This document shows positions 5,493-48,082 of a DNA stretch of 49,323 nt, in pieces (within the stretch, counting starts at the first letter, position 1; the number at the start of each line of letters is the position of its first letter). Source of the DNA: an uncultured Gammaproteobacteria bacterium (GTDB lineage: Bacteria; Patescibacteriota; Patescibacteriia; UBA11705; JABHMO01); assembly GCA_964434235.1 (NCBI GenBank), contig CAYSUN010000003.1, positions 1-49,323 of the forward strand. Reading direction: 5' to 3'. The position numbers and the translations under genes were made by a program. Below the pieces are notes generated by a model. It did no database searches, was not told the origin of the DNA, and saw nothing but the letters and a program-made list of their open reading frames with translations.

Positions 5493-6443
5493 TTAATTAT
5501 TCAAAGTTGTTTGACTAGCCTCATCTACTGCTTCGTAATATATTTCCATCAAAGTTTGATCATCAAGGGCATTTAACTCTGTACCTGAAAAACCTTGTTC
5601 AATCATAATTGCCCTAACTTGACTTGGCGTAAGAGTTGTCAAGGTATTCAAAGTTTGGCCAACATTACTTGATTCTAAATCGGTAATAGAAACTGGCTCA
5701 GTAGATCCTGCCGTGGATCCTGAAATATAATTTAACATTTGTTCTTTGATGTCTGGATTTTCTTCAAGCATTGTCTCATACATTTGCATTAAAGAAGCAT
5801 CACTAATTCCTTGGACTTGCGCTTCAGTTGCCTGACCACTAGCCACAATCATTTTTCGTAAATCTGAAGCAGAAACCTCAGTAACAGTGGCATTCACCGT
5901 TCCGTTACTAGAAACTGCCACTTCCTCACCAGCATCGTCATATGTGGTATAACAATCATATCCTTCTGGACATAATGGATCTGTGTAATTTTTTATTTCT
6001 ACACCATCATCAATTCCGTCACTATCAGAATCAGCCAAATATACACTCGTGTCATAAACATAAAGTTCATCAAAATCATTTACCCCATCGCCATCAGTAT
6101 CTTTGGTTTTTAGAATTTCTGGATCTTGTTCTAATAATCTTTTTTGTTCTGCCAAAATAGCATCATAAGCAGAAGTATCACCAGTATACTTATCTTCATC
6201 AGGAAAAGGAATTCTAAACATACTACTTATTTGTACAGCGCCCAAAACAACTACTAATAAAGTAACTAAACCAACTGTGACAATAGCAATGTTTTGTCTT
6301 TTTTTGAATTGATGATAACTAAAATAATTTTCGTGTTTCACTTCAGTTTTGTCCAAAATTTTACTTAGTTTTTCAGCATTGACATTTTGGTCAAAATCAT
6401 CATCAAATTTTTCCTCAAAATTCACATTATTTTCATTTGGCAT
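5493..6443 (-). CDS. Single-TM protein with DxDxDG (bacterial TSP3-like) Ca-binding repeats
   Basis: TM segment IAIVTVGLVTLLVVVLGAV; DTDGDGVNDFDE and DSDSDGIDDGVE...TDPLCP; repeated helical C-terminal unit (LRKMIVASG.../VRAIMIEQG...). Confidence 0.8.
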   Translation of the reverse strand: MPNENNVNFEEKFDDDFDQNVNAEKLSKILDKTEVKHENYFSYHQFKKRQNIAIVTVGLVTLLVVVLGAVQISSMFRIPFPDEDKYTGDTSAYDAILAEQKRLLEQDPEILKTKDTDGDGVNDFDELYVYDTSVYLADSDSDGIDDGVEIKNYTDPLCPEGYDCYTTYDDAGEEVAVSSNGTVNATVTEVSASDLRKMIVASGQATEAQVQGISDASLMQMYETMLEENPDIKEQMLNYISGSTAGSTEPVSITDLESSNVGQTLNTLTTLTPSQVRAIMIEQGFSGTELNALDDQTLMEIYYEAVDEASQTTLNN

Positions 6444-29700: not shown

Positions 29701-32700
29701 CCAATCAAACAAGACACCTTGAATGTATCAGCTGAACTTTGACACTGTTCACAATTTATATTTTTTATTCCGACATGATTAGCTGTATCACAAGTTTGAC
29801 CAGCATAACACTGAACTAAACGTGTACCAGGTGCATTACAACCCTCAGTTTGATCTATTTCACAAGTAATTGTTTTTTTGAAAACTCCTGCTCCAATATC
29901 AGAACAACCAACCGCACCTTCATTACAAGGAACTTGCATTGTGCTTAAACAACCAGCGCCCCCAGTACAAGCTTCTATTACTTGATTACAACTAGGATCA
30001 CCAGAATGGCAAGATTCACTTTTGGTGCAATTGTTATCACAACTTGGAAAACCTTTCCACACGCACTTATTTGTGCAAAGTGGATTATTTTCAATGGAAC
30101 AAACACAATCATCACCAGTGGTACATTCATGCCTTAAGTCATCAAGACAAACTGCTTCGCACTCTTCTCCAATATCAATCCTGCCGTCACCGCAAAGTGC
30201 CATATTTTGGATTTCACTACTTTTATATTTTGATCCAGTGTGTAAACATAATGAAGATAATCCTGATTTTGCATTATTAGAACCTTTATCATCATCTTCT
30301 CCCGGTTCAACAATTCCATTACCACATTCATAACCTTGAGTTGTACCTTTGTTTAAGCAGGTGCTAGTACAAGCTGGCGAACCACTAGTTCCATCGTCAC
30401 ACTCTTCCCCAGCATCAACAATGCCATTGCCACAATCAGTACTAATAATTGGTTCAGTTAAACAAATATCACTACAACCATCGCCAGGTACGTCATTTCC
30501 ACCATCACATTCTTCTCCCAAATCATAATCAATTTTATTATCACCACAAACAGCAGCGTAAGGCTCACCACCTGTTACTTGGCATTTATCATTACAATAA
30601 GGTTGAACATTAGCTCCAAGATTTAAATTTAAAACTGTAGCAATGACCGGATACTGACTTTCCCAAGTCCAGTCATAATCAAATGGAGTTAACAATTGTC
30701 CATTTGCGTCACATTGATTTGGCATTGAATATGGTTCTGTCCAATATTCAACTCTTTCTCCAACTTTTTCTGAAATATAATATTTTGGCACTAATTCTAC
30801 TCGATCAACTTGACATTTAGTATCATCATTTTTAGTTTTAAATATCCAACTAAAAGCGTCATACGCACCAGTTGCGCCAACCTCAAAGGTATCCGCACTA
30901 GTACATTGATTATCTGGTTTATAATAAGTTGAATTTTGTTTAATAGCAGAAAGCAAAGCTGAATCTGTAATAAAATCATCGTTACTTAAATTTTGACAAG
31001 TAATAGCTGAATTTTCTGGACAAACAAGTTGCGCAGTTAATTCTGCATAACCAACAAACTCACCTTCAGAATAACAACCACAAACATAATCAAGTTCAGT
31101 TCCTTCGCCTTCAATATAACCACCTGTAACATCAATTCCTCCATCTCCGTCATTATCCAAATTATCAGAGCAATCGCCATCCGGCGCCCCAGCAGTTGCA
31201 TAATTCAAATTACTTAAAACAACTTGGCTAGAACTTTTAATTCCGTTCGTTAAAACTACCCGGTAATATGTATTAGGACTTAAAACGCCATTATTTAAAC
31301 CGATAAGTGTTCGAAAAAATCTACCCTCAGTAAAATCTGTTCCAGAATTATACTGAATATTCAAATTTTCAACAGGACTAAGGGAAGTACAATCAGAAGA
31401 AAAACAAGAATAAATTTTTACTGTGCTTGAATTTAAAGTTGTATCATCCATCTCGATATTAAAGTTGGCTGTAATCGCTGTATTGATACAGGCTTCATCA
31501 CAATTAGGATAAGACCTGATAACTTTTGGTTTTTGAAATTTTACTTGTAAAAAGCCTTTTTTATAAAGTGAATCAAACAAAGCTGCTAAATCAGCATCTC
31601 CAGGCACAGCTGAAACTGAAATTTCATAAGGGTCCCATGGCAAACTTTCAAAAACAGTATTGGCAGGGTTTTCATCAACTTTTAATTTATAATAACCAAT
31701 ATATTTCTCACTATTAGTTGGATCAGTACAAATTAAATGATTGGTAGCAGAAACTGGTGAATAAGGATTAAACTCAGAACAAGCATAACCAGCAAATTGA
31801 ACCTTGGATTGATCAGCAGTTGCAACTTGCCAATCCCAATTTTCATCAACCAAAGCAATATCCTGACATTGGTATTGACCAGAAACAATATATTTAGCAT
31901 TACCATAAAGTTCATTAATTAAACCAACAAGCGGAGTTAAAAGTAAATTTTCTGGTATGCAAATTTCTTCTTTTGTTAAAAATGACCATTTATAATTACC
32001 AACCATGTACTTTGAAGTACTTGTAGCAGTCGTTCCTATCGGTGCCCGAACTCCAGAGTAACCACCACGTACTGTAATTTCATACCAAGTATTTGGAAAT
32101 AAATAATTATCAATATTATCTACCAGCCCAGGATTAATTCCACCGCTAACTGTGTTATTATTTGAATCTTTGAGTGAACTATATAAATTAATTCTTGATA
32201 AAGCTTGACCAGAACCAACACATATACAACCTTCACTATCTGGCTGGCAAACTGCTCCACTAGAATTTTGACAACTATAATTTAATGTTTCTGAAGCATA
32301 ATCAGTTGATTGATTGAAATACTGAATTATTCTAGAAATACAAACTCCTGGCACAACACTATTTTCAGTGCTTGAACAAGCGTTTAGATCACATTTTACA
32401 CCAGTTGAATTTAAACATCTTTTAACAACTATATTATTAGAAAGTGTTGTTGGTTCTACTGGTAAACTAAAAGTAAAACCAATCGTGCCATTAATACAAG
32501 CTGAGCTTGAATTACGATATGGTGAAGGCGATTGACTATAAGCGCCAGGTAAACAAGTTCGTTCTAAAACAGCTAAAATTTCTGGTAATGGCCCAGTACT
32601 CAAAACCCACATATACTCTGATGGTAAATATTCAAACTCTTCTTCACAAGACCCAGAAGTTTGACAAATACCAGTAGCACAACACTCTTCTCCATTGCTA

Positions 32701-35700
32701 CATGAGCCTGGCGTACAACTTCCAACATTAAATATATAAGTATTACTTCGATCACTGCCATCATCTTTTTCTAGAAAAACACCACCAGATTTGGCGCCGG
32801 CAGGTACAACTGCATTCAAAATTTGTTCAGCTGACCATTCATTAAAACTACTAACGGCTACGCCCGAATCAACCTCCCCTAATGTTCCTCCATTCGCAGA
32901 AAATTTTAGAATGTAACCCCCTTGATTACCAAAATATTCACCGAACACATTAACCCCAGTTCCAACTGGTCCATTATTTGGATCAATTGAACAAATACCA
33001 GGTGTTGGCTCGCCGTCTGAAATATTAATATCAAAAGGCGCACTTACTAAACCATCGGCTGTATATAAAATTAATGAATAATCAAGACTATATGGATCTG
33101 TTCCGCCAGGCAATTCATTAGCAATATTTTCTGGAATTTTTATTATAATCTGTTCATTGTTCCAATTTATTTTGTTACAACCAAAAACTGCTGGCCAATC
33201 ATAGGAATAACCATTGATTGTTGTATGAACTTCGACAAAACCAACCTTATCACCAAAATACAAACCATTAACATTAAACATTTGTCCAATGTGTAAAGTA
33301 TCTGGGTTAACACTTTCTATTACCGGGAAATTCGCACTTGGAATAACTTGAAAAAGCGCTGGATTACTAACAACACTTTTGCAAACACAACTTTCTGATC
33401 CTTCTGAACACAAAGATCCTTCACTATCTTTACATAATAAACCTTTATCTACGTAAACATTATATGATCCATCAGCAAGGCTAGGAACTTCAATTCCAGT
33501 AATTTGTGTATTAGTCCACTGCCCTTCTCCATAAAGTGCCCCAATCAAACCAAAAGTCACATTATCATCGTTTTCTTTTGTTGTTCCAAAATTTTCACCT
33601 GAAGCCTTTACTGTATTACTAATTGCACCTTGGTTACAAGTAACTAGAATATCTCCCTGCACGCCAGGAGTACAACCCTGCAATTGAATTGAACACAAAC
33701 CTGGATAATTTATCGTTGGATCAACTATAAAATCGCCTAAATATCCTTTTTCATCATCATCAGTTGTATCAACTTGCCCTAAATAATTTACAACCTTAAT
33801 TGGTCCGGTCACAGCACCAGTTGGAACCTTGGCGATTATTCTATTTGGACCCCAAGAAGAATTAGGGTCACAAGCAACACCTGCCTCCAAATAAGTTCCG
33901 TTTGGTCCACTAAAATAAATCCTACCTTGATTTTCATTACCAAACTTTTGTAAAAAACCAACACCAACAATTGTAACCAAATTACCTGGGCCAGCACTTA
34001 TTGGAGCAATATCCACAATTTCCGGAACTGTTACGCACATACCTTCACAAGCTACTCCTTCTTCACAGTCAGAATCATTTGCACAATCAATGTTATCTTC
34101 ATCAGCACAAGATAGTCTACAAATACCTGCGCATTGATCATCATTTGTACAACTAGTTCCATCACAAGCTCCACATTCTGGTTTTGATCCATCACTGTCA
34201 CAAATTAATTGACCATTACCATCAAAACAATATTCAGGCAAAACCTTAACTGAAATAGATTTGGTTCCTATTTGTCCAACAACATCCTCTGTTTCAGCTT
34301 TTAAAATATAACTTCTTAATTCATAATCATAAGTATCCCAATAAATACTTGTTTCAAACAGCCTAGGAGTAATATTACCTTGTGGCACGTTTACACCTAA
34401 AGCTGGAGATAACTCGTCTTCAAATAAACTAGTATAACTAATTCCACCATCATCAACAGATTTTAGTAAAACATTATATTCAAAATTTTCACTTACCTTT
34501 GAACCATTTATCAAATTCATGAAATTTACACTTGGAGCAGTAACATCACAAACTGCATTTGTAGTAAATTCTGTATTACAAAGACTTCCAACACTACAAA
34601 GCAAACTGTAACTTCCCGCTATAGCTTTGACACCACCCTCATTTAAACGAACACTAACCTTGGTATTAGCATCAAAACATTTTTGTCCACTGCAAACTTC
34701 ATCTTGACAATCCTTATCTGGAGTAAAAGTAACAGTTGCACCATCACCAGACAAAGCAAAAGAACCAGCAATTTCAGTTTCTTCACCAGCTACAAATTCT
34801 TCATTTTCAACTTCAACAAAAGCATAATCAAACTTAATACAATTTGAGCCAACCCTTTTTAGATAAACATATATATCATCGCTATTGTCATAACAAGCAC
34901 TAGGAATGTCCAATTTACTTTCGCCACTTTCAGTCTTATACTCATCTGCAATATAATACTGCTTACTCCTAGCAATAGCTTCCGTTGGACCACAACTAAT
35001 ATCAAAATAAGCCCTATCCCCAGCTGCGATCAGATCAAATGCCAGTTTTACAGAAAGAGCTTGCTCATGATTAACTTCAGCCACATTATAGTGTAAAACC
35101 ATTTTATCATCACCCAAATACAAAGGGTTACCATTTGCGATTGAACATACAACCCAACCAGAATTATAAACACTATCATCTGCAATAATTTCAGGTAAAA
35201 TTATATCTTCATTACCATTAGATTCTACAGCAGAATCTGGAACAATCTGAGTAGTCACTATTTCTTTTTCACCAATTTTAGTAATTTTAATATTTTCACT
35301 TGTAACAGTGGCTGGATTTAGGGATTTAGAAAAAGAAATATTAAGCTTAGAATTAATTGGCATGCCATTTCCTTGAGGAGAAACTCCAGTAACAATCAAC
35401 TGACTTTCACTACCAATAATTATCGGCAAAGTATCTCCACCAGTATTATCGTTTGCATTAAATCCAGTTGCATCAGACAAACGGCTCAAAACAAAAGTAG
35501 TAATTGCATAAGCAGAAAATATTATAACTAAACCGATCACACCATTAATCATCCATTTCTTGGCTTTACCAACCTTATCATCACTACCACCTGAAGTCAT
35601 ATACAAAAATCCACCATAAAGAAATATAACCAAAGCGACCGTACCAACTAAGCCAAGAAAAACTTTTATAATACTACCTATTATTGTTCGGATATCCCCA

Positions 35701-35852
35701 TTGCCCAGACCTGTTTGTTCTCCCACAATGTCAACGCCTAAATTATCTTGAGCAAATACTTGATTGGCAAAAGAAAAACCAACTACTACGAATAGCATTA
35801 TTAAAAGTAGGTAAAGAATTTTAGTTCTTTTATTTTTATTTTTACTAAACAT
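23733..35852 (-). CDS. Giant 4039-aa multidomain surface protein with a pilin-like N-terminus
   Basis: Signal peptide (VFAQ); TM hairpin IIKVFLGLVGTVALVIFLYGGFLYMTSGG..KVGKAKKWMINGVIGLVIIFSAYAI (TrbC/VirB2-like); Ig-like and IPT/TIG repeats; CGNGIVDAGEECDDG repeats; about 9 CxDGxDNDGDG repeats; LamG-like WMIESWV...FNHIALSFDG...GFVDEF; pseudopilin-like RDTRRIMDM...LPVDPLN; vWA-like FADTSGSM...VLTD. Confidence 0.9.
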   Translation of the reverse strand: MFSKNKNKRTKILYLLLIMLFVVVGFSFANQVFAQDNLGVDIVGEQTGLGNGDIRTIIGSIIKVFLGLVGTVALVIFLYGGFLYMTSGGSDDKVGKAKKWMINGVIGLVIIFSAYAITTFVLSRLSDATGFNANDNTGGDTLPIIIGSESQLIVTGVSPQGNGMPINSKLNISFSKSLNPATVTSENIKITKIGEKEIVTTQIVPDSAVESNGNEDIILPEIIADDSVYNSGWVVCSIANGNPLYLGDDKMVLHYNVAEVNHEQALSVKLAFDLIAAGDRAYFDISCGPTEAIARSKQYYIADEYKTESGESKLDIPSACYDNSDDIYVYLKRVGSNCIKFDYAFVEVENEEFVAGEETEIAGSFALSGDGATVTFTPDKDCQDEVCSGQKCFDANTKVSVRLNEGGVKAIAGSYSLLCSVGSLCNTEFTTNAVCDVTAPSVNFMNLINGSKVSENFEYNVLLKSVDDGGISYTSLFEDELSPALGVNVPQGNITPRLFETSIYWDTYDYELRSYILKAETEDVVGQIGTKSISVKVLPEYCFDGNGQLICDSDGSKPECGACDGTSCTNDDQCAGICRLSCADEDNIDCANDSDCEEGVACEGMCVTVPEIVDIAPISAGPGNLVTIVGVGFLQKFGNENQGRIYFSGPNGTYLEAGVACDPNSSWGPNRIIAKVPTGAVTGPIKVVNYLGQVDTTDDDEKGYLGDFIVDPTINYPGLCSIQLQGCTPGVQGDILVTCNQGAISNTVKASGENFGTTKENDDNVTFGLIGALYGEGQWTNTQITGIEVPSLADGSYNVYVDKGLLCKDSEGSLCSEGSESCVCKSVVSNPALFQVIPSANFPVIESVNPDTLHIGQMFNVNGLYFGDKVGFVEVHTTINGYSYDWPAVFGCNKINWNNEQIIIKIPENIANELPGGTDPYSLDYSLILYTADGLVSAPFDINISDGEPTPGICSIDPNNGPVGTGVNVFGEYFGNQGGYILKFSANGGTLGEVDSGVAVSSFNEWSAEQILNAVVPAGAKSGGVFLEKDDGSDRSNTYIFNVGSCTPGSCSNGEECCATGICQTSGSCEEEFEYLPSEYMWVLSTGPLPEILAVLERTCLPGAYSQSPSPYRNSSSACINGTIGFTFSLPVEPTTLSNNIVVKRCLNSTGVKCDLNACSSTENSVVPGVCISRIIQYFNQSTDYASETLNYSCQNSSGAVCQPDSEGCICVGSGQALSRINLYSSLKDSNNNTVSGGINPGLVDNIDNYLFPNTWYEITVRGGYSGVRAPIGTTATSTSKYMVGNYKWSFLTKEEICIPENLLLTPLVGLINELYGNAKYIVSGQYQCQDIALVDENWDWQVATADQSKVQFAGYACSEFNPYSPVSATNHLICTDPTNSEKYIGYYKLKVDENPANTVFESLPWDPYEISVSAVPGDADLAALFDSLYKKGFLQVKFQKPKVIRSYPNCDEACINTAITANFNIEMDDTTLNSSTVKIYSCFSSDCTSLSPVENLNIQYNSGTDFTEGRFFRTLIGLNNGVLSPNTYYRVVLTNGIKSSSQVVLSNLNYATAGAPDGDCSDNLDNDGDGGIDVTGGYIEGEGTELDYVCGCYSEGEFVGYAELTAQLVCPENSAITCQNLSNDDFITDSALLSAIKQNSTYYKPDNQCTSADTFEVGATGAYDAFSWIFKTKNDDTKCQVDRVELVPKYYISEKVGERVEYWTEPYSMPNQCDANGQLLTPFDYDWTWESQYPVIATVLNLNLGANVQPYCNDKCQVTGGEPYAAVCGDNKIDYDLGEECDGGNDVPGDGCSDICLTEPIISTDCGNGIVDAGEECDDGTSGSPACTSTCLNKGTTQGYECGNGIVEPGEDDDKGSNNAKSGLSSLCLHTGSKYKSSEIQNMALCGDGRIDIGEECEAVCLDDLRHECTTGDDCVCSIENNPLCTNKCVWKGFPSCDNNCTKSESCHSGDPSCNQVIEACTGGAGCLSTMQVPCNEGAVGCSDIGAGVFKKTITCEIDQTEGCNAPGTRLVQCYAGQTCDTANHVGIKNINCEQCQSSADTFKVSCLIGTAGCVADPLAGNQTIYGKKVINCSECTADNVYPWACQLTEADTCIENLKTVNCNSSDPACSCNNCCGNGVRENYLGGGGSSLDPDEDCEAECKYLGPDGASCIFGTANCVCTFPEYCSTSCINKGSQTEYGSYCQDGNTLFEPGEDPECEYDLSCDPSEGNTCPAGAIKGAPYDVATVIPSGNVESVILTRNNENAYIFEYNVVTNYIQAVTNISANMIEDASPKTGFGKLKYRTNDPYLINKYKDILPNVSDYSDTPGTKKQCNNLLDDDSDTLVDLDDTCCESSEDDSEGGSCENVACSDGLDNDGDGFCDYGAQGCTCNYDNDYCGTHNSNTTFLPRDPGCQAAGDTSELDEIGNCSDGRDNDGDGLFDFCEAGQLCNTCDPDCTSPTDGENVDNSQTPAQCSDGQDNDGDGAIDYPADPQCSSCGDNSEEDTIEICESSASIDNNHSHPYNNETDVCLNSQVLVAFDQQVVLPEGSVYFGFSGSCPDISYEGGFFNKTYQKVKMFVKNMFVKVGLAEAGYCEVEQEYSISESISGDSIVTITPSATLLANKEYLIKFEDLENSCGENLGDISSVFVTGNEICRVDNVAVTPGQTFVTKPNTQTVFNAIARKGNQPIVESPGVYEWVYDWKISDESLILGMAGCADYIYANGAGVCYQDAQQPLPDEAMDYEFVEVVSNNKNGTANISANVVIVVDKIAEEMGTFLGQELSSVGEKTTGNAKYQVLLCDNLWEPSAYAPDPDNNGENRWGKFTNLISTGEYQTTYIYEKNFNVGLFYCRDFGNPGFADDLPKVDIGLGEFITKEVTPRYGIYFDRNQDYVQVSDSNLGFMSSESSPNNDWMIESWVYHEGYADSKFSRLFYKNLDQDPSTNNHVQLAFRYWGENCDNGCEYAYGNFANTNNCTGCTDKRSIVYSIKTNGAEIVRTTQAGAGLLSGGFNHIALSFDGVNTSHLYVNGEEVATVPDEFGIDDLNYWPVNLTEPPSPGYGYSDLYIGGLGKTGTASVSLAGFVDEFSVWDTDDLAPNLNKIIDPTSEPNLKGLWTFDDNVLDVTGNNRSVAHCSLDDMNSKCLSGDFYHMNLTELAKDQGFFVESQLPWVQLSGDFQNQCNDGIDNDGDGEKDYNADTWIGDPKCKSYTDPWEEPELFEQYFFIRVNDKVDPSTGLPYPTNDYAADAISLRIYENSENLPPEIWYQKYAPNPTPNPNKIALDCQEDDFGKFCYDGVQDGATVYVASSNVAETNGQTENRIYNNIYVLGYTLNANEATKNIYAQMVNLLWFNTNMVTNQGVQPEKSKLIRDTRRIMDMVLMRQYLNIYKSTHNGQVPQLASGTYVRGRTFSSWPSWQNEFGNTLQQSLPVDPLNHFKWVKTNVINTGAVCEAEQLEPGEQPNRCPVEFGGNPSDYQCVIPGEFCSNCPIGYDKLTCYNSELQRFFNYYDEDPFAHYVYSFRTDPFATGNSSAFDLKFALEISGPAYDTYKFIVTPSFDSDDWISPALPPDNPEEYLLGQCSDGIDNDGNGFTDYSEIGGDPGCDSITDSLEDFDYICNDGWDNDGDGTCDFAGCDDCTASNNYCNTYNSSVQFLPADPSCDSAFDRNETYPTQCSDGIDNDGDYLIDYCDPSVQTCVNNDQDCKGPYDDYENKKVLFTFFADTSGSMQTYDPDRVHQDIIKKMINGIDKADGTHINGIDDVFGENAYYMLETSRSGDLRKEYYPAGNAENFVQWLSCSENWENCIDSPATCAQTYNCGEPGRCSSVSCENNSQCASGFCQKVCTTGNCQNKCAVGIYDKCASPYNYNGAAQIASRVEQTYNDGRYLYNFGEVKNSVPVNFSHHVYVVLTDADDYTEFENRANTIGLINTNRTPFHLFYIRSINLDETDLKYQFWHRYHGLCAGLSCSSDFDCAGDCVNGICQACTDGEGCLNVANGKRCSAEPVFGLPLCPTDCIADLNYQGVWLQGNPTTLESQLENVMLNIVTLPEPTQIPEDQYIY

Positions 35853-35883: not shown

Positions 35884-38061
35884 TTACTGAAGCTCACTTG
35901 GGCCTAGTGGTTGGGCACATTCATCACCAGCAACTGCTTGCAATCCAAAAGTTCCATCTTGTGGACAGCATGAATAACCAGAAGAATTATTATTGCAAGA
36001 ACTTCCCTCCACTGATCCATCTTGATTTACAGTTGGACTAAAACAATTCATCCGAGTGTCTTTTAATTCTGATTTTATAATTGGTGTATATATAGGTAAA
36101 AGATCTTCACCATCTTCATATTCTCTAAATGGTGCATGAGTAATGGCAATCGTTGTCATATTAACAACTGCTGGAGTTGATGGATCTGAATCAGCATCCA
36201 CTAACTCAAAATTTGAGTCAAACCAACCATCAAAATCTTTTCCATTGCCATGTTTACCATATAAATAAACTTCTTCATCAACTGACTGTGCATCCAAATC
36301 TTCACTAAAAGTAGCTTTAATAGTTACGGTCGGAGAAATAGAACCAGCTGTAGCGCCAACACTATGCGAAGGATTTAAATTAGTTAAAACAGGACCAATC
36401 AAATCCAAAGTATTACCAGTTAAAAAATCCCAATAATAACTATCCAAAATTGTTGCTAAATCACTAGCTAAAGTATCAACAGGACCAGGTCCTTCCATTT
36501 GTCCATTAGCATTACCATCAAGAGAATTACCTCCCATATCCATAATTCCAGTTCCAGGATTAGCCACACCTTCACTAATAATTTCAGCAGCTAAAATTCG
36601 GCCTGTAATATTAGCATTACTTGGCAAACATTTCGCTGGCTCACCACAAGAATTACTTGCACCTTGCTCGCAATCCGTATCAGCTACGAACTGAATAGTT
36701 CGATATTGATTTAAACCTACTCGCCAAGTACCAGGGATAAAATTCGTATCACAACCAGCAATTGAAGAATCTGATAACATTTGAACTTCATTATCACCCA
36801 CTCCATCAGCACTACCACAACCTTGAATTTGCGTTAATGGAGGAATAACTGGCTCACTAAAATTAATATAAATTGCTTGATTTAAATAAACCTTGCCTTG
36901 ACAATCAGCATTAGAACAACCTATTTGTTTTATGCCACATTTACAATTTCTTAAACTTTCCGCTGAAATAGGATATTCAACATTGGCCGGAACTACAGAA
37001 GTTACAGTTGGTGGGGTAAGGTCCACAAATGTTCCTGTTGTAAAACGCCATTTGTAATCAGGGTAAGAAAAATTAAAAACTCCACCTCCGGCTTGTTCAT
37101 CGATACCCAACTTTTGGATAGCTGAAGTTAAATATACTATATATGTTTCATCTTTTTCTTCACTTCCGAGATGAATATTAAAATTATTAAAAGGATTAAA
37201 AATTAAAGTTTTATTATCTTCTGTCATCATGGCATAACCGGGAACAAGTTTATTACCATTACAAATATTATTGACACAATTTCCACCACCACACTCGGAA
37301 TCTACTGCACAAGCACGGCCTTCAGCAATATCGTAAAATGGAACCTGCTGACAACTCTTTGTTACATCCAAAGAATGCTCGGCCATCATATCAGCACATT
37401 TATAAACACGAATAGCATCTTTTTTTATTTCGCCACAAGTGGCAACTCCAGGAGGACAATTAGCATTGGAATTTTCATCAATAACTGATCCTGGGAAAAT
37501 CGGAGTTTTAAAAGTAACTAAAATTTGAGTATTGCGAGGAACTCCTGTTTGTTCTGGTTCTGGATAATGGCTTTGAATAATATGCCCAAAAGCACCACCA
37601 GAAATATTGTATCCACCACCAGCCAAACCTGCAGTTAAAAAATATCCAGGAGGATTTACGTTGGGATTAGAATTATCAAATAAACCGAATACAAAACTGG
37701 TAATTGAATAAGCAGCAAATATTATAACCAGACCAATAAAACCATTTTTTAACCATTTTTTAGCTACACCAAGTTTAGTTTCATCACCTCCGGCCGTCAT
37801 ATAAAGGAAACCGGCACCTAAAACAATTATCAAACCGATCGCCCCGATAAGACCAAGCGCAACTTTTATAATATTTCCAACAATGATTCGGGGATCAGTT
37901 TTTTGTAAAACTGTTTGACCAGCAACAGTATCAAGATTTGCAGTCATGTCACTCTGAGCATGAACAGCAATTGGAACAAATAAAAAAACTGCCAATATAA
38001 ACACTAAACAACTGACAGTTATTTTTATTACTCTCTGAGAGAATAGTTTATTTAAATTCAT
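35884..38061 (-). CDS. 725-aa surface protein with pilin-like N-terminus and Ig-like domains
   Basis: Signal peptide (VHAQ); IIKVALGLIGAIGLIIVLGAGFLYMTAGGDETKLGVAKKWLKNGFIGLVIIFAAYSI is paralogous to the 4039-aa N-terminus; HYPEPEQTGVPRNTQILVTF and DLTPPTVTSVVP Ig-like units; GAGGGG before the ATG. Confidence 0.88.
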   Translation of the reverse strand: MNLNKLFSQRVIKITVSCLVFILAVFLFVPIAVHAQSDMTANLDTVAGQTVLQKTDPRIIVGNIIKVALGLIGAIGLIIVLGAGFLYMTAGGDETKLGVAKKWLKNGFIGLVIIFAAYSITSFVFGLFDNSNPNVNPPGYFLTAGLAGGGYNISGGAFGHIIQSHYPEPEQTGVPRNTQILVTFKTPIFPGSVIDENSNANCPPGVATCGEIKKDAIRVYKCADMMAEHSLDVTKSCQQVPFYDIAEGRACAVDSECGGGNCVNNICNGNKLVPGYAMMTEDNKTLIFNPFNNFNIHLGSEEKDETYIVYLTSAIQKLGIDEQAGGGVFNFSYPDYKWRFTTGTFVDLTPPTVTSVVPANVEYPISAESLRNCKCGIKQIGCSNADCQGKVYLNQAIYINFSEPVIPPLTQIQGCGSADGVGDNEVQMLSDSSIAGCDTNFIPGTWRVGLNQYRTIQFVADTDCEQGASNSCGEPAKCLPSNANITGRILAAEIISEGVANPGTGIMDMGGNSLDGNANGQMEGPGPVDTLASDLATILDSYYWDFLTGNTLDLIGPVLTNLNPSHSVGATAGSISPTVTIKATFSEDLDAQSVDEEVYLYGKHGNGKDFDGWFDSNFELVDADSDPSTPAVVNMTTIAITHAPFREYEDGEDLLPIYTPIIKSELKDTRMNCFSPTVNQDGSVEGSSCNNNSSGYSCCPQDGTFGLQAVAGDECAQPLGPSELQ

Positions 38062-38958: not shown

Positions 38959-40275
38959 TTATCCTAACCTTTTTTTAATTTCTTTAATTGCTTTGTCCAT
39001 TCCCAAAACTTCTTGAATTCCACTATCCATATCCCGCAAAATTACGGTTCCTTCAGTTGCTTCTTTCTGACCTAAAATTAGAACAAATTTAGCACCAATC
39101 TTTTTCGCCATATCAAGCTGAGACTTTAGACTTCTTTTTGAAAAGTTAGCCTTTACAACAAAATCTTCTTTTCTTAATTTTTCAAAATACGAAAAAGCTT
39201 TTTGACGAGCAAATTCACTTAATTGTGCTAAATAAACTTGTGGTTGTTTGACAACTGGGATTTCAATTTTATTTATTTTAAAGTGATTAAAAATACGCTC
39301 TAATCCAAAACTGATTCCCGCTCCAGGAACTTCCGGCCCACCAAGCATCTGAATCAAGTAATCATAACGACCACCACCAGCCAAAGAATACCTTTGTTCT
39401 TCTGATTCAACTACAGTTGGATAAATTTCAAAAACAGTTTTATTATAAAAATCAAAAGTACGGAAAAGGTTTGAATCTAAACGATAAGATATTTTTAATT
39501 CATCTAAATATTCCAAGACGCGGAATAAATGATCTCGACATTCATCGCAAAGCCAATCAACCATTTGTGGTGCATCGTCTCGAAGTTGAACGCATTTATT
39601 ATTTTGGCAAGAAAGAAATTTTAAAGGATCTCGAGTAACATGCTTTCGACACTCAGCACAAACAGCTGTTCGTTTTGATTTCAAATAACCGCTAAGAGCT
39701 TTAGCATATTCTGGTCGACAACTTACACAACCCATACTATTCAATCTTACCTCAACTGGTATCCCTAGATTATTCAAGAAAGAACAACCTATAATTATTA
39801 ATTCTGCATCAATTGGTGCACTTTTTTCACCCAATATTTCCAAACTTATTTGAGTAAATTGTCTAAGTTTATTTGCTTCAACTTTACCTTGTCGAAAAAC
39901 TGGCCCCCAATTAAAAATCTTAATCGGCATTGTATGATTTACCATGTTATGTGAAATAAAAGCACGAGCAACAGATGAAGTTGTTTCTGGTCGAAGTATT
40001 AATTTTTGCCCCTTATCAATAAAATTAAATGACTCTTTATCCAAAACTCCTGACTGTTTAAACAATGTATGATTAAACAATTCATATTTCTCAACAATAG
40101 GAGTGTCCAATCTTGTAAAACTATAATCATCAATTACTGACTGCATTTCTTTTTCTACAAAATTTAAATATTTTTGTTCAGCTGGCAAATTGTCTTTCAT
40201 ACCTTCAACCAAAGGTGGCGTTTTAATTTTTTTTATCTCTTCCTGTGGTTGATCTTCTTTTTTTCTTCTTGGCAT
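38959..40275 (-). CDS. hisS: Histidine--tRNA ligase (divergent)
   Basis: LRPETT, GPVFR...LRQFTQ, AGGGRYD, FGLERI, anticodon domain LKSQLDMAKKIGA; Cys-rich insertion domain. Confidence 0.88.
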   Translation of the reverse strand: MPRRKKEDQPQEEIKKIKTPPLVEGMKDNLPAEQKYLNFVEKEMQSVIDDYSFTRLDTPIVEKYELFNHTLFKQSGVLDKESFNFIDKGQKLILRPETTSSVARAFISHNMVNHTMPIKIFNWGPVFRQGKVEANKLRQFTQISLEILGEKSAPIDAELIIIGCSFLNNLGIPVEVRLNSMGCVSCRPEYAKALSGYLKSKRTAVCAECRKHVTRDPLKFLSCQNNKCVQLRDDAPQMVDWLCDECRDHLFRVLEYLDELKISYRLDSNLFRTFDFYNKTVFEIYPTVVESEEQRYSLAGGGRYDYLIQMLGGPEVPGAGISFGLERIFNHFKINKIEIPVVKQPQVYLAQLSEFARQKAFSYFEKLRKEDFVVKANFSKRSLKSQLDMAKKIGAKFVLILGQKEATEGTVILRDMDSGIQEVLGMDKAIKEIKKRLG

Positions 40276-43251: not shown

Positions 43252-44748
43252 ATGACAGAAATCATTAAAAAATATCCAACGGTTGCTCTAATCGGTCGAA
43301 CAAATGTTGGTAAATCAACCATTTTTAATCGTTTGACAGATAATGCCATAGCGATAGTTTCTCACATTCCAGGAACTACTCGAGATCTTCGACATGGAGA
43401 ATGTCAATGGATTGGCAAAACTATTACAATTACAGACACAGCTGGACTTGATATTGTGTCAGATATTATTATTGATAAAAAATCAGTTAACATGGCTGAA
43501 AAATCTATTGCAGAATCTGACTTAGTCCTGCTTATTGTTGATGTCAGGGATGGTTTATTACCACAAGACAAAGCTTACATAAAATTAATTCAAAAGTCTG
43601 GTAAACCTTTTTTCTTGGTAATTAATAAAGTTGATTCACAAAGATTAACTGAACAAACTGATGAATTTTATAAATTGGGTGTAGAAAAATTCCACATGAT
43701 TTCCGCCAAAACAGGTGCTGGAACTGGTGATTTACTTGATGATGTTTTTGCAACTCTAGAAACAAAAAATATTTCCACTGAAACGACCGAAATTAAACCT
43801 GCTAATAAAAACAACATTAATATAGCTTTAATTGGTAAACCTAATGTTGGGAAATCTTCATTATTAAATGCTATTCTTGGCGAAGAAAAATCAATTGTTT
43901 CAGAAATTCCCCACACCACTCGTGATAGTCAGGATTTTACTTTTTATTACGAAAAAGAACACAGCAAAAAATCAAAATTTATTTCTAATCATGCAAAACA
44001 AATAAAAACCAACTCAGCTGAACCAGAAACAGCAGATAATAATAAATCAACGAGATATTCTTTAACTTTTGTTGATACTGCTGGTATAATTAAAAGCCGA
44101 AAAATCAATGATAAATTACAAGAGCTCAGCATTGCTCAAAGTTTAGATAGTCTAAAAAAATGTGATATTGCTTTGCTTCTTTTTGATGCTGGTGAACCCG
44201 TTACCATGCAAGACAAAACCTTAACTCAAGAAATAGAAAACAATTACAAATCAATTATTTTTGTTGTAAACAAATGGGATTTAGTTGATGACAAAACAAC
44301 TCATAGCGACAAAGAATACACTCAGTACCTTGCCAGCGTTATCCCCTTTTTGACTTGGGCTCCAGTTGTTTTCGTGTCAGCCAAAACAGGATTTAAAATT
44401 CAAAAATTAATTGATGTAATTATTGAAATATACGAAAAAGAACAAACTGAATTTGAGCAAACAGCACTGGATGATTTTCTAGCTTCCTTGCTTAAAAAGA
44501 AAACTCCACCAAGAGTTTATGGCACCAAAGCACCTTATCTTTTCTCAATGAGACAAACTGGCCGTGGCCCATTAACTTTTGAATTTTTAGCTAGTCAGTC
44601 AATTCACATTGATTATTCATATCAAAGATTTATCAAAAAATATCTTCGTCAAAAATTTGATCTTGCTGGTTGTAGTATTAAATTAAATTTTGTAGAAAAA
44701 ACCATTCAGCACGGAGAAGGTCAACCTATAAAATTTTCTAAACACTAA
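43252..44748 (+). CDS. der: Ribosome biogenesis GTPase Der (EngA)
   Basis: Two G domains: GRTNVGKS/TTRD/DTAG/NKVD and GKPNVGKS/TTRD/DTAG/NKWD; KH-like C-terminus. Confidence 0.96.
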   Translation: MTEIIKKYPTVALIGRTNVGKSTIFNRLTDNAIAIVSHIPGTTRDLRHGECQWIGKTITITDTAGLDIVSDIIIDKKSVNMAEKSIAESDLVLLIVDVRDGLLPQDKAYIKLIQKSGKPFFLVINKVDSQRLTEQTDEFYKLGVEKFHMISAKTGAGTGDLLDDVFATLETKNISTETTEIKPANKNNINIALIGKPNVGKSSLLNAILGEEKSIVSEIPHTTRDSQDFTFYYEKEHSKKSKFISNHAKQIKTNSAEPETADNNKSTRYSLTFVDTAGIIKSRKINDKLQELSIAQSLDSLKKCDIALLLFDAGEPVTMQDKTLTQEIENNYKSIIFVVNKWDLVDDKTTHSDKEYTQYLASVIPFLTWAPVVFVSAKTGFKIQKLIDVIIEIYEKEQTEFEQTALDDFLASLLKKKTPPRVYGTKAPYLFSMRQTGRGPLTFEFLASQSIHIDYSYQRFIKKYLRQKFDLAGCSIKLNFVEKTIQHGEGQPIKFSKH

Positions 44749-44774: not shown

Positions 44775-45326
44775 ATGAAAATTATAATTGGTTTAGGTAA
44801 TCCAGGAAAAAAATATTTATTTACTCGTCACAACATTGGTTTTGCTATGCTCGAATTTTTGCGTGACGAATGGTTACAAGCTGAAGGTTTTTCTAATTGG
44901 AGCGACAACAGTAAATTTCAATCTAGGTTATGTGAAGGCAATCTAAACGGACAAAAAATAATTTTAGCCAAACCTACAACTTTTATGAACAATTCAGGCG
45001 AAGCGGTTAGTGCTCTAATGAATTTTTATAAAATCGAACCACAAGATTTGATTGTTATTCATGATGAAGTTGATTTACCTTTTGGTAATTACAAAATCCA
45101 AAACGATAAATCAGATGCTGGACACAATGGTATCAAATCAATTATTGAAAAAATTAACAGTCAAAATTTCACCAGAGTTAGAATTGGAGTGGGCAAAGAA
45201 GACAAGGCCAAGCAAGGCGACACAGCTAGATACGTACTTAACAATTTTGGCTTTTTAGAAAAATTCAAATTAAAAGAACTTAAACTAAAAATATTAGAAG
45301 AATTAAAAAACAAACTTCAAAAATAA
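44775..45326 (+). CDS. pth: Peptidyl-tRNA hydrolase
   Basis: IIGLGNPG, TRHNIGF, KPTTFMNNSG, HDEVDL, GHNGIKS, RVRIGVG. Confidence 0.97.
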   Translation: MKIIIGLGNPGKKYLFTRHNIGFAMLEFLRDEWLQAEGFSNWSDNSKFQSRLCEGNLNGQKIILAKPTTFMNNSGEAVSALMNFYKIEPQDLIVIHDEVDLPFGNYKIQNDKSDAGHNGIKSIIEKINSQNFTRVRIGVGKEDKAKQGDTARYVLNNFGFLEKFKLKELKLKILEELKNKLQK

Positions 45327-45339
45327 AATTTATAAAAAT

Positions 45340-45380
45340 AAAAAAGCACCCAAACAAAAATTAAACTGGGTGCTTTTTTT
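45340..45380. terminator. Bidirectional terminator between pth and the convergent gene
   Basis: aaaaagcaccca...tgggtgcttttttt. Confidence 0.75.
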
Positions 45381-45466
45381 ATTTAAATTTATGATTTAAA
45401 ATATAATTTAAAAAGTGAAGAGCCCTGATCAGTTGATCAGGACTCAAATGTTTTTCGTTGTGGCCG

Positions 45467-45829
45467 TTATTTACGACCACCCCTCCCCCTCTTACCTTTG
45501 CCTTTCTTCCCCTTTTTACCAGAGGAAGTGGCTTTTTTGCCATGACACGACTTGCCATGACAGGACGACTCAATGTGGACAGGTCGCCCAGGCGACGTCA
45601 CAATCACCGTTTGTTGGTGATGAGGCCGACGAGGTCGAACTGCCGGCGCTGGACGGCGAGACTGATACCGGCGAGGCGCATAATACCGACCACGCGAGTA
45701 GTACCCTCGTGATGAATGGTATCCACGAGAATACCCGGACGGAGAGTGAACCACGTAAGTCGGCCCACAACCGCCCAAAAAACTTCCAACCAGAACGAAC
45801 CCAATAACGAACAAAAAACTCTTATACAT
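45467..45829 (-). CDS. Small cationic low-complexity putative lipoprotein (120 aa)
   Basis: GGAGG before ATG 45829; MYKSFLFVIGFVLVGSFLGGC (lipobox-like); YxSRG repeats, SCHGK x2 and a K/G/R tail. Confidence 0.7.
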   Translation of the reverse strand: MYKSFLFVIGFVLVGSFLGGCGPTYVVHSPSGYSRGYHSSRGYYSRGRYYAPRRYQSRRPAPAVRPRRPHHQQTVIVTSPGRPVHIESSCHGKSCHGKKATSSGKKGKKGKGKRGRGGRK

Positions 45830-45958
45830 GGTAGCCTCCAAAAAGGTAAAAGGTGAAAGTTCTCAACAAGATCCAAAAATTAAAATTCAAAATTTAAATT
45901 CTATTTTTTGCTCTTGTTATATTTTTTAAAGATCTTTCAACGCTAACCCTTAACCCAC

Positions 45959-46082
45959 AAAAAAACTGATCAACAAAACTTAGCTCACCAGTCTAAGATA
46001 AATCCTAGAATTGGATACTCCACAGTTAGGAGGGGACACTGTCTTTCTCCATACTGGTAAGCATAGTCTTATAGACCAGTTA
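45959..46082 (-). ncRNA. Candidate structured small RNA or leader of unknown family
   Basis: Three stacked helices whose four non-Watson-Crick pairs are all G-U on the minus strand; two apical hairpins; U7 tail; upstream TTGACA promoter. Confidence 0.55.
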
Positions 46083-46089
46083 TACCAGT

Positions 46090-46119
46090 ATCTTATACTA
46101 TCACAGTTTATATTGTCAA
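46090..46119 (-). promoter_or_regulatory. Sigma70-type promoter for the candidate RNA
   Basis: TTGACA followed by TATAAG (16-nt spacer) or TAAGAT (18-nt spacer). Confidence 0.55.
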
Positions 46120-46203
46120 GAATCATAATTTATTCATATTGTAATTGTATCATATTTTTATTAAAAAGTCAATAGATTGCACAAATTTTGTCTAATTATA
46201 CAT

Positions 46204-46229
46204 AAAAAAGCCCAGTATTACTGAGCTTT
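46204..46229 (-). terminator. Intrinsic terminator after the 46234 gene
   Basis: Minus strand aaagctcagta-a-tactgggctttttt. Confidence 0.75.
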
Positions 46230-46233
46230 ATCT

Positions 46234-46905
46234 TTACACTAAAACCTTTATTAACCACATGGTCATAAGTGCACTGAACGGCACCCAAAAATTATCCCAA
46301 TCTGTTGTAAACAGTTCGACTAAAGTTGCAGTGACCACTCCTGCAATCAAAACTAACCAGCTCATTTCTACATTGGCAATTGAAGAAAATAAATACACTA
46401 CCAAAACAGAAAAGATAAAAAATGAAGCTGAACCAGCAAAAGTTTTTTTACCGTACAAACACATCCTTCGCCAACGCAATCCAACAAGGCCATTAAACCC
46501 ATTGTGCTTCCACTCTTTGCCAACAATCCGAGCTATGGGATCACCAACTGCCAGCATCAAGCCACTACAAGTTGCTAATTCTCGAGGCAAATCAAAAAGA
46601 ATTTTCAAAACAACAACTACCAAACCAACAAAAACGAATTTAGCACCAGAGCTAATCTGATTTTTCTCAGAATCACGAAGCATGTTGAAAAAAAATTTAC
46701 CAGTAAAAAATTTGATTAAACTGATAGCCCATAAATCTTTCACTGATCTCCGCCAATCAACAAATAAAAACAACAAACCAAAGCCAACTAAAATTCCTAA
46801 AAACAAATCATTACAAAACCAAAATAACAATGAAGCACAACCAATTCCTAAAAAATGCCAAATTGCTCGCTTGTAATCCTGATGTTTTTTATTAATAAAG
46901 GACAT
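46234..46905 (-). CDS. CTP-dependent polyprenol/diacylglycerol kinase family membrane protein (dolichol/phytol kinase-like)
   Basis: RAIWHF, LRDSE, VGDPIARIVGK, KKTFAGS, LVELF...DNFWVP; multiple TM segments. Confidence 0.8.
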   Translation of the reverse strand: MSFINKKHQDYKRAIWHFLGIGCASLLFWFCNDLFLGILVGFGLLFLFVDWRRSVKDLWAISLIKFFTGKFFFNMLRDSEKNQISSGAKFVFVGLVVVVLKILFDLPRELATCSGLMLAVGDPIARIVGKEWKHNGFNGLVGLRWRRMCLYGKKTFAGSASFFIFSVLVVYLFSSIANVEMSWLVLIAGVVTATLVELFTTDWDNFWVPFSALMTMWLIKVLV

Positions 46906-46990
46906 TTATCCCCTCCTGACGATTGTTAATCGATTTTTCTTTTGTTATGATAACATAATATCCCAAAATATTAAAATACACTTTATTTTT

Positions 46991-48082
46991 ATGAATAATT
47001 TAAAATATTGGTTAGCTTTTTCTCAAATCAATCGTTTAGGTGCTAAAAAGTTCCAACTCCTACAAAATTACTTCCCAAATTTAGAATACGCTTGGCAAGC
47101 TTCAGTTTCTGAATTAATTGAAGCTGGGTTAGAACAAGGTCTAGCTGAAGAAATTGAGCTACGTCGAAAAAAAATGGATTTAGATAATGAACTGGACAAA
47201 ATTAATCGTGAGAATATTAAAGTTGTCACAATTGAAGATGAAAATTACCCTAAACTTTTGAAACAAACCTACTCCCCGCCATTCTTATTATATTACAAAG
47301 GAAATTTAGATAATTTACATGATCAAGCCTTGGCTGTAGTTGGAACAAGAAAAGTTTCAACTTATGGACAAACTATCACTCCTCAAATTGTGAGCGAACT
47401 AGCTAATCAAGGTTTAATTATTGTGAGTGGATTGGCACTTGGAGTAGATGCGATTGCTCACACAACTTGTGTTAATAATAACAAGGTCACAGTCGCTGTT
47501 TTAGGCTCTGGATTAGACAAAGAAAATATTTACCCTACAACTAATCGAGCTTTGGCTAATTCAATTATTGAAAATAATGGTTTAATTATTTCAGAATTTC
47601 CAATCGGTATGATGCCACTTCGACACAATTTCCCAGCTCGGAACAGAATTATTTCTGGCTTAAGTTTAGGTACGTTGGTGGTCGAAGCTGGTGAAACTTC
47701 TGGCGCTTTAATTACGGCCAAGTTTGCTTTGGAACAAAATCGTGAAGTTTTCGCTGTGCCAGGTCAAATTCATCATCCCCTTTCAGTTGGTACAAATAAT
47801 CTAATCAAGCGTGGAGCCAAATTAGTTCAATCAGCCAGTGATATTTTTGAAGAATTAAATTTGCAAGAAATTAAACAACAAAAAAAAGTTCAAGCAATCA
47901 TTCCAGATTCTCCTGAAGAAGCAACAATTTTAAATGTTTTAAAAAATGAACCATTACACACAAATGACATTATAAAAAAAACTGCTATGTCCGCCCAAAA
48001 AGTTAATTCAACTCTTATGCTTCTTGAAATGAAAGGCCAAATAAAAAACTTGGGCAATTCTAATTACTTAATTTCTAGTTAA
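46991..48082 (+). CDS. dprA: DNA-processing protein DprA
   Basis: AVVGTRK, VSGLALGVDAIAH, AVLGSG, FPARNRIISGLS, VVEAGETSGALITA, VFAVPG; C-terminal winged helix. Confidence 0.97.
   Translation: MNNLKYWLAFSQINRLGAKKFQLLQNYFPNLEYAWQASVSELIEAGLEQGLAEEIELRRKKMDLDNELDKINRENIKVVTIEDENYPKLLKQTYSPPFLLYYKGNLDNLHDQALAVVGTRKVSTYGQTITPQIVSELANQGLIIVSGLALGVDAIAHTTCVNNNKVTVAVLGSGLDKENIYPTTNRALANSIIENNGLIISEFPIGMMPLRHNFPARNRIISGLSLGTLVVEAGETSGALITAKFALEQNREVFAVPGQIHHPLSVGTNNLIKRGAKLVQSASDIFEELNLQEIKQQKKVQAIIPDSPEEATILNVLKNEPLHTNDIIKKTAMSAQKVNSTLMLLEMKGQIKNLGNSNYLISS

Follow-up and report, generated by a model that had tools for sequence, protein, structure and literature searches.

A conserved structured RNA family with an exposed anti-Shine-Dalgarno loop in Patescibacteria-like bacteria

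Introduction

Anti-Shine-Dalgarno (anti-SD) or C-rich loops that block ribosome-binding sites (RBSs) are an established mechanism among the small RNAs (sRNAs) of Gram-positive bacteria. The C-rich-loop sRNAs of Firmicutes, such as RsaE/RoxS and those with the loops of RNAIII, are about 100–130 nucleotides (nt) long, have their own promoter and hold in a loop an unpaired, C-rich, SD-complementary motif for which RBS occlusion is proposed. Here we describe an RNA that resembles them in its size, its predicted promoters and its loop, encoded in contig CAYSUN010000003.1 of assembly GCA_964434235.1 (49,323 nt; this whole stretch of DNA is called the window hereafter), with a core at positions 45964–46081 of the minus strand. 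Unlike the Firmicutes sRNAs, the new RNA has one C-rich motif and not two or three, carries this motif on a closing helix of 23–26 base pairs (bp) that pairs the two ends of the molecule, and keeps its synteny across deep divergence in hosts that hardly use SD sequences; a scan that included the RsaE/RoxS families matched nothing in it.

Several other described systems are partly comparable. The cia-dependent small RNAs of streptococci (csRNAs) are also small, have an unpaired region complementary to the SD sequence and act on competence genes, and the new RNA adjoins the competence gene dprA; however, it has no homology to the csRNAs, whose architecture and phylum also differ, and the dprA gene of the window offers no SD-like sequence for pairing. 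The 3' tail of 16S ribosomal RNA (rRNA) exposes the same hexamer in single-stranded form, whereas the new RNA is encoded outside the rRNA genes, by a small gene of its own between pth and dprA. With 6S RNA it shares paired ends, internal loops, one or more strong promoter-like sites and possibly a length of ∼180 nt (if transcribed from the upstream site), but its conserved element is a C-rich hairpin loop and not a promoter-like bubble. Type I toxin leaders, which sequester their own SD sequence, likewise place a structured 5' anti-SD region upstream of small membrane-protein open reading frames (ORFs), as is seen in some members of the new family; unlike these leaders, the new RNA has no evident antisense partner, its anti-SD occupies a loop instead of pairing with an SD sequence, and the downstream ORFs are unrelated to one another and absent in two members.

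Almost nothing is known about the regulatory and structural RNAs of the Candidate Phyla Radiation (CPR), which accounts for much of bacterial diversity and comprises bacteria with small genomes and odd ribosomes. The RNA described here founds a conserved structured RNA family of Patescibacteria-like (CPR) bacteria, which is compact, supported by covariation and equipped with a clear functional element that lends itself to testing.

Family members, covariation of the helix and constancy of the loop

The family consists of the window and at least eight relatives (loci L001, L002, L003, L004, L008, L009, L044, and L054). The relatives come from a genome scan by an alignment of 17 DprA proteins, in which at least 600 stretches were matched and the best 80 loci were examined, the top locus being 53% identical. 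Closer relatives of the DprA of the window that a protein search showed (69% identity), which are named from Candidatus Kuenenbacteria and Candidatus Falkowbacteria, lie outside these 80 loci, and the size and range of the family are lower bounds. A model built on the window sequence alone recovered L004 (33.7 bits, E = 3.2e-5) and L002 (17.2 bits, E = 0.83) from 1.09 Mb, both with the loop sequence and the flanking GAAA and AGUA, and a scan of 81 sequences for GAAA, the 9-nt loop sequence (at most one substitution) and AGTA in this order found four places, namely the window, L002, L004, and L009. Members L001, L008, L044, and L054 were added by reading the pth–dprA intervals of loci with the gene order of the window. 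Model R2, built from eight sequences, found L003, which was unseen in its training, with 35.9 bits (E = 6.5e-6); over the 80 loci and the window with default filters, it returned its eight training members, L003 and three weak matches (E 0.49–4.2), with no credible match in the other 71 loci. Conversely, model R3, trained on the eight relatives but not on the window, gave a single match in the window at 45966–46079 of the minus strand (28.3 bits, E = 2.6e-5). Only four members, L002, L003, L004, and the window, were detected by a model in whose training they had no part. When seven more CPR-like loci were searched without filters, nothing but palindromic terminators and noise came up, and the palindromic terminators in L032 and L055 scored merely 13–20 bits, equally on both strands.

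Covariation was measured on A8, a sequence-only MAFFT alignment of eight members; a model-made alignment, A6, was left out for its spurious terminator row. The closing helix has 23 aligned pairs in A8, with 91% of the cells in standard pairs. Changes on both sides were found in 18 of the 23 pairs, and none of 500 column shuffles reached any of the five measures. When the 3' partners were slid by 1–3 columns as a control on the same alignment, pairing fell to 29–46%. In the folds of the individual members, the closing helix measures 19–26 bp and contains, in the family, an internal loop of the type ...CUGCC.../...GGCAGUA...

Only one block, the heptamer CCCUCCU, is the same in all nine members; its mean predicted probability of being unpaired ranges from 0.44 to 1.00 over the family. 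The original prediction, made from the window sequence, had staked its proposal on conservation of this loop, and the loop proved to be both constant and mostly unpaired. A stem of 4–8 bp (P4) encloses the heptamer in eight of the nine members, no two of which share the stem sequence, and in L009 the strict rule leaves a stem of only 2 bp. The sequence GAAA stands upstream of the heptamer in 4/9 members by a strict motif scan, with variants elsewhere, and a second hairpin is variable in length.

Fold and strand of the RNA

In the window, the RNA core, delimited by the two ends of its closing helix, measures 118 nt (45964–46081, minus strand, as are all its elements), with its ends paired. The 5' strand (46053–46081) and the 3' strand (45964–45992) of the closing helix form three stacked helices of 8, 8, and 10 bp in the minimum-free-energy structure, pairing 46081–46074 with 45971–45964, 46072–46065 with 45980–45973, and 46062–46053 with 45992–45983. 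Hairpin P4 (46022–46042) has the form ACAGU-loop-ACUGU, that is, a 5-bp stem with an 11-nt loop that shows UCCCCUCCU. Within it, the anti-SD heptamer (46028–46034), which includes CCUCCU, has a mean predicted unpaired probability of 0.69. On the 5' side of P4 stands the GAAA element (46044–46047), which belongs to a conserved motif of an internal loop or junction, and on the 3' side its partner AGUA (46016–46019), which is AGUAG-like in most members; the arrangement of GAA opposite AGUA may resemble a loop-E/bulged-G module. Hairpin P5 (45993–46008; 6 bp, 4-nt loop) is the variable second hairpin of the family and is absent in L001.

Both fold energy and the G-U pairs place the RNA gene on the minus strand, as had been proposed. 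The minus-strand fold has −47.1 kcal/mol (z = −4.18), with 0/200 shuffles as good, and the plus-strand fold has −31.0 kcal/mol (z = −2.23), with 6/200 shuffles as good. There are exactly four G-U pairs in the three closing helices and one more in P5; the four in the closing helices would be A-C mismatches on the plus strand, and hence only the minus strand fits. The TTGACA promoter-like element, the three stacked helices, the ACAGU/ACUGU hairpin and the terminal run of seven U residues (U7) of the original prediction are all found in place, and its observation that the four G-U pairs exist on one strand only is confirmed. In the predicted ensemble of the window RNA, the closing helix dominates, and no alternative anti-terminator or SD-sequestering fold was seen.

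A protein encoded within the RNA was considered and rejected. Neither the 48-aa (amino-acid) ORF at 46126–45980 nor a 19-codon GUG frame has recognisable peptide features, no SD sequence precedes the 48-aa ORF, and the helices differ among members by compensatory substitutions and by insertions and deletions.

Comparison with catalogued RNAs

With the models of Rfam 15, which include 6S, signal recognition particle (SRP) RNA, 5S rRNA, RNase P, tmRNA, RsaE, and all riboswitches and ribozymes, nothing in the whole window reached the gathering score, no relevant match at E ≤ 10 was obtained in the 801 nt and the 196 nt around the RNA, and nothing at E ≤ 1 was obtained at the RNA positions of five related loci. 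The best overlapping Rfam hit was a plant microRNA hairpin with 20 bits against a threshold of 120. An identity as 5S rRNA was considered in view of the GAAA/AGUAG elements and three-way shape of the new RNA and was rejected, as the 5S model gave no match at E ≤ 10. In 6S RNA, a large central bubble separates the closing stem from a long apical stem; a long apical stem of this type was not found in the folds, which have the 4–8 bp hairpin and the variable second hairpin instead. No such RNA is described for CPR, Patescibacteria, or Parcubacteria in the literature covered, which lay outside subscription journals. By these comparisons the RNA family is new, and the function that we assign to it below is putative.

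Promoter-like sites and RNA ends

Two promoter-like sites precede the RNA in the window, both on the minus strand. The upstream site P1 (46144–46172) reads TTGACT-17 nt-TGnTACAAT, with 10/12 matches and a TG before the −10 element, and would give a transcript of ∼179 nt. The site P2 (46090–46119) has TTGACA at 46119–46114, followed after 18 nt by TAAGAT or after 16 nt by TATAAG (46097–46090), and its transcript would be ∼125 nt long and begin just before the closing helix. In 7/9 members, the 130 nt upstream of the RNA contain a promoter-like site that matches the consensus at 10 or more of the 12 positions, with 12/12 and an extended −10 element in L001; in the other two members, a perfect TTGACA is followed by a weaker −10 element. 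Promoter-like hexamers in the region number 12, against 5.6 expected. Several relatives have an unconserved 5' extension of 30–60 nt between the promoter and the helix.

At the other end, the U7 run (45959–45965, minus strand) lies directly 3' of the closing helix and is the probable 3' end. Such a U run straight after the helix is found in the window and L002 only, while a distinct hairpin terminator stands close behind the helix in L001 and L003, so that a terminator or U run follows the RNA in 4/9 members. A terminator scan of the window did not call the RNA, whose hairpin spans 118 nt, an intrinsic terminator. Judging from the promoter-like sites, the RNA is presumably made; a stand-alone RNA gene of ∼120–180 nt with its own promoter-like sites is what we predict, and taken jointly with the pairing function proposed below this prediction is tentative and falls somewhat short of an even chance.

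Scarcity of SD sequences and candidate targets

The host genome seems to initiate translation largely without SD pairing. Among the 33 non-overlapping ORFs of at least 80 codons in the window, only five show an SD-like 5-mer ahead of any start codon within their first 60 codons (the lipoprotein gene downstream of the RNA, which has GGAGG, was displaced by an overlapping ORF and is unscored). The genes hisS, der, pth, dprA, lepB, and the LCP-family gene have AT-rich upstream regions with no SD motif; examples of such regions lie upstream of 38959–40275, 43252–44748, 44775–45326, and 46991–48082. In a comparison that is crude because start codons are uncurated, an SD-like 4-mer occurs at the first start of 12/98 ORFs in member loci versus 197/760 in the other loci. 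A published survey (PMC9297842) detected the anti-SD motif CCTCCT at the 3' end of 16S rRNA in only 48% of Parcubacteria and suggests that some of them do not form the SD helix.

Against this background, the loop has a perfect 9-nt complement, AGGAGGGGA, at 46909–46917 of the minus strand, in the RBS of the upstream 223-aa gene and 4 nt before its ATG. This sequence occurs exactly twice in the window, once as the complement of the loop itself (46028–46036, plus strand) and once at this RBS; with one mismatch allowed it is found three times versus 4.18 expected, which is not above chance. The predicted duplex of the loop with this RBS (−22.5 kcal/mol) ranks first among the 33 ORFs, whose median is −2.7 kcal/mol. 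Other strong duplexes were predicted for a 725-aa gene with matches to T4SS-pilin and Big_5 domains (−17.5 kcal/mol), which has the loop-complementary SD-like sequence GAGGGG, and for a 93-aa ORF (−12.9 kcal/mol). In the member loci, AGGAGGG occurs at eight sites outside the RNA genes, three of them 4–6 nt before an ORF start. The complementarity to the RBS at 46909–46917 had been pointed out in the original prediction and is indeed exact and the best available, but it does not identify a conserved target, the 223-aa gene being missing from 8/8 related loci; we therefore regard this gene as a candidate lineage-specific target.

A possible role in pairing with rare SD-led messenger RNAs

Our leading explanation, held tentatively and with rather less than even confidence, is a stand-alone structured sRNA that uses its exposed anti-SD loop to pair with the rare RBSs of the AGGAGGG type. 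The long covarying closing helix would serve as a rigid, nuclease-resistant scaffold, and the short hairpin on top of it would display the invariant CCCUCCU. The loop would bind the AGGAGGG-type SD-like sites of a few messenger RNAs (mRNAs) and close their RBS to the ribosome. In the window, the candidates for such translational repression, as suggested by base complementarity, are the 223-aa gene, the pilin-like gene of the 725-aa surface protein, the 93-aa ORF, and the downstream lipoprotein gene, and in some members the small co-transcribed ORFs downstream may be targets in cis. Since most genes have no SD sequence, AGGAGGG sites are rare and the target set would be small and specific. The repressor of SD-led mRNAs that had been envisaged earlier is thus retained in a narrower form, as one that would act on a small special set of genes and not on translation in general.

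Several points weigh against this explanation. No conserved target was found: the gene of the best target in the window is lacking in the relatives, and AGGAGGG does not recur at homologous genes across the members, within the 5–17 kb available per locus. Any sequence containing CCUCC is complementary to an SD sequence, and complementarity alone does not show targeting. The P4 stem that would display the loop is only modestly supported (flank-shuffle p of 0.02–0.90 per member, 0.0055 combined), much more weakly than the closing helix. Base-pairing sRNAs usually evolve fast, but here the loop, the internal loops, the helix, and the synteny persist across relatives whose DprA proteins are just 40–53% identical to that of the window; a conservation of such depth is a pattern more typical of protein-bound housekeeping RNAs. 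Five of the relatives were chosen by eye, from motif and synteny, and then trained models R2 and R3, and the scores of these relatives under the models are partly circular. Finally, promoter-like sites are the only indication of expression.

Alternative explanations

A protein- or ribosome-bound housekeeping RNA, in which the loop and the GAAA/AGUAG junction form a recognition surface, is an unlikely explanation, though one to be taken seriously. Its partner could be a protein that normally reads the CCUCCU-bearing 3' tail of 16S rRNA, or some other, and the RNA would titrate, guide, or regulate it. The conservation of the loop, the internal-loop sequences, the helix geometry, and the position across distant relatives is what such an RNA would lead one to see, as are the single copy in each locus, the strong promoter-like sites (12/12 in L001), and the lack of a conserved mRNA target in the local sequence. 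In L054 the RNA heads a run of three transfer RNA (tRNA) genes on the same strand (4514–4757, minus), with no obvious terminator between them, an arrangement like that of a stable-RNA operon. The RNA lies between pth and dprA (between pth and mfd-dprA in L002 and L044), on the strand opposite to dprA and facing away from it. Among the 80 loci, pth is present in 11, of which seven have the RNA, in addition to the short contig L003. In 6/9 members, the window included, the RNA adjoins der, the gene of a ribosome-biogenesis GTPase. However, the lcp-der-pth/dprA order is a housekeeping synteny that is also seen in loci without the RNA (L005, L032, L055, and L058), and no candidate for a partner protein is consistently encoded alongside. 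Moreover, each RNA has one copy of the motif, and hence a sponge with multiple sites is not what the family presents.

A cis-acting 5' leader or attenuator of a downstream small envelope-protein gene, working by early termination or SD sequestration, was the second function offered in the original prediction, for the lipoprotein gene of the window, and we consider it improbable. A small same-strand ORF with an SD sequence does follow the RNA at 20–130 nt in 5/9 members (the window, L001, L002, L004, and L008), and four of these five ORFs encode a lipoprotein or a small membrane protein: a basic Arg/Tyr-rich lipoprotein in the window and L001 (6547–6942, minus strand), a membrane-anchored zinc-ribbon protein in L004, and a small membrane protein in L008; the fifth, in L002, encodes a 74-aa soluble protein. 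For L002, L004, and L008, a promoter belonging to the ORF itself either would not fit or is not apparent; in the window, no promoter-like sequence was recognised in the interval between the RNA and the lipoprotein gene; and the U runs straight after the helix in the window and L002 would suit an attenuator. Nevertheless, no coherent class of genes lies downstream across the members: L003 and L009 have no ORF after the RNA, L054 has its tRNA genes, the element that follows in L044 is ambiguous, and the downstream proteins are unrelated. Even the two lipoproteins, each with a long, very basic tail rich in Arg, Tyr, His, and Gly, are alike in composition only and not alignable (BLASTP E = 1.0). 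In addition, a complete hairpin terminator ends the RNA in L001 and L003, the loop complements just the 5–6 nt SD core of the downstream genes, and an alternative anti-terminator fold was not seen.

A third possibility, which appears very improbable, is that the RNA supplies the anti-SD in trans and is the main or only reader of SD-like sequences in lineages with hardly any SD-led genes, such as those studied here, or without the 16S anti-SD. The helix and the junction could then dock on the small ribosomal subunit and bring in AGGAGGG-led mRNAs, making the anti-SD detachable and regulatable, or, in a variant, the RNA could mark these mRNAs for a separate fate.

A very divergent 6S RNA, SRP/4.5S RNA, or 5S rRNA that the Rfam models fail to recognise is more doubtful still. 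The rod-like shape with paired ends, the strong promoter-like sites, and the single copy are reminiscent of such RNAs, and some members would reach ∼180–190 nt from their upstream promoters, near the size of 6S RNA. Yet the window RNA gave no 6S, SRP, or 5S match even at E ≤ 10, nor did the five related loci at E ≤ 1, and the 6S-like RNA that the original prediction had listed as an alternative is not borne out. The apical stem of 4–8 bp with its large loop is unlike the long apical helix of 6S RNA, there is no GNRA-capped helix with paired internal loops as in SRP domain IV, and the second hairpin is variable and in L001 absent.

A non-functional chance inverted repeat or an oversized bidirectional terminator of convergent or divergent genes has next to no likelihood, as the U-run end, the intergenic place, and the many promoter-like hexamers that AT-rich genomes yield are outweighed by the compensatory changes in 18/23 helix pairs, which contradict it, by the invariant unpaired heptamer, the favoured minus strand and the reciprocal model matches, and by the low, strand-symmetric scores of true palindromic terminators (L032 and L055).

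Other features of the window and the related loci

The window, a segment of a Patescibacteria (CPR) chromosome, has a G+C content of 34% and contains hisS, lepB, an LCP-family gene, der, pth, and dprA. The gene upstream of the RNA (46234–46905, minus strand) encodes a 223-aa multi-pass membrane protein and has its own terminator-like hairpin at 46229–46207. This protein has just two close homologues (59% identity) among 5.8 billion proteins, one of them from Candidatus Falkowbacteria, and "dolichol kinase" is the name that one source gives to a 59%-identical homologue; no Pfam or NCBIfam match was found for the protein. A four-sequence query of species-representative genomes matched 19 DNA stretches, none of which was confirmed to hold the gene. 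The gene downstream (45467–45829, minus strand), preceded by GGAGG at 45839–45835, encodes the lipoprotein, a basic Arg/Tyr/Gly-rich protein of 120 aa with a signal peptide ending in LGGC, and has a terminator-like hairpin of its own at 45445–45420. Between this gene and the convergent pth, an inverted repeat of 18 nt with A and T runs on its flanks (45335–45384) looks like a two-way terminator.

Elsewhere in the window are two giant ORFs on the minus strand, one of 4039 codons (23733–35852) and one of more than 1814 codons (2–5443); the gene of the 725-aa protein (35884–38061) comes after the former. A phage or plasmid origin was considered and rejected, blastn giving no match in the phage and plasmid collections. 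In L009, a very stable long hairpin (2510–2600, minus strand; z = −8.2) lies just downstream of the family member, with the C-rich motif repeated in its 5' arm and the G-rich complement in its 3' arm; it might serve the loop in cis, as a decoy or a partner, and no long C-rich/G-rich hairpin of this kind was seen in the other loci. In L008, a tRNA-Sec-like match (6266–6353, plus strand) stands directly upstream of pth with 44.8 bits against an Rfam threshold of 47. The loci L001–L004 and L054 are filed as "uncultured Gammaproteobacteria" or "Pirellulales"; since the order of their genes (lcp-der-pth, dprA, topA or mfd) and their paucity of SD sequences look Patescibacteria-like, these taxon labels are probably wrong.

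Significance

The family sets an exact, invariant anti-SD hexamer, held in a loop, into genomes that have largely abandoned SD-led initiation. The exact hexamer, the deep conservation of structure and position, and hosts that barely use SD sequences set it apart from the known anti-SD sRNAs, although by analogy its mode of action is probably of a known kind. The alignments and models are a ready probe for surveys of genomes and metatranscriptomes. If the presence of the RNA tracks the loss of the 16S anti-SD in Parcubacteria, it would bear directly on how translation starts there, and an anti-SD supplied in trans, if true, would be a new organisation of bacterial translation initiation. If the loop pairs with mRNAs as we propose, the RNA would govern a small post-transcriptional regulon, consisting in the window mostly of envelope and accessory genes, in organisms from which most known regulators are missing.

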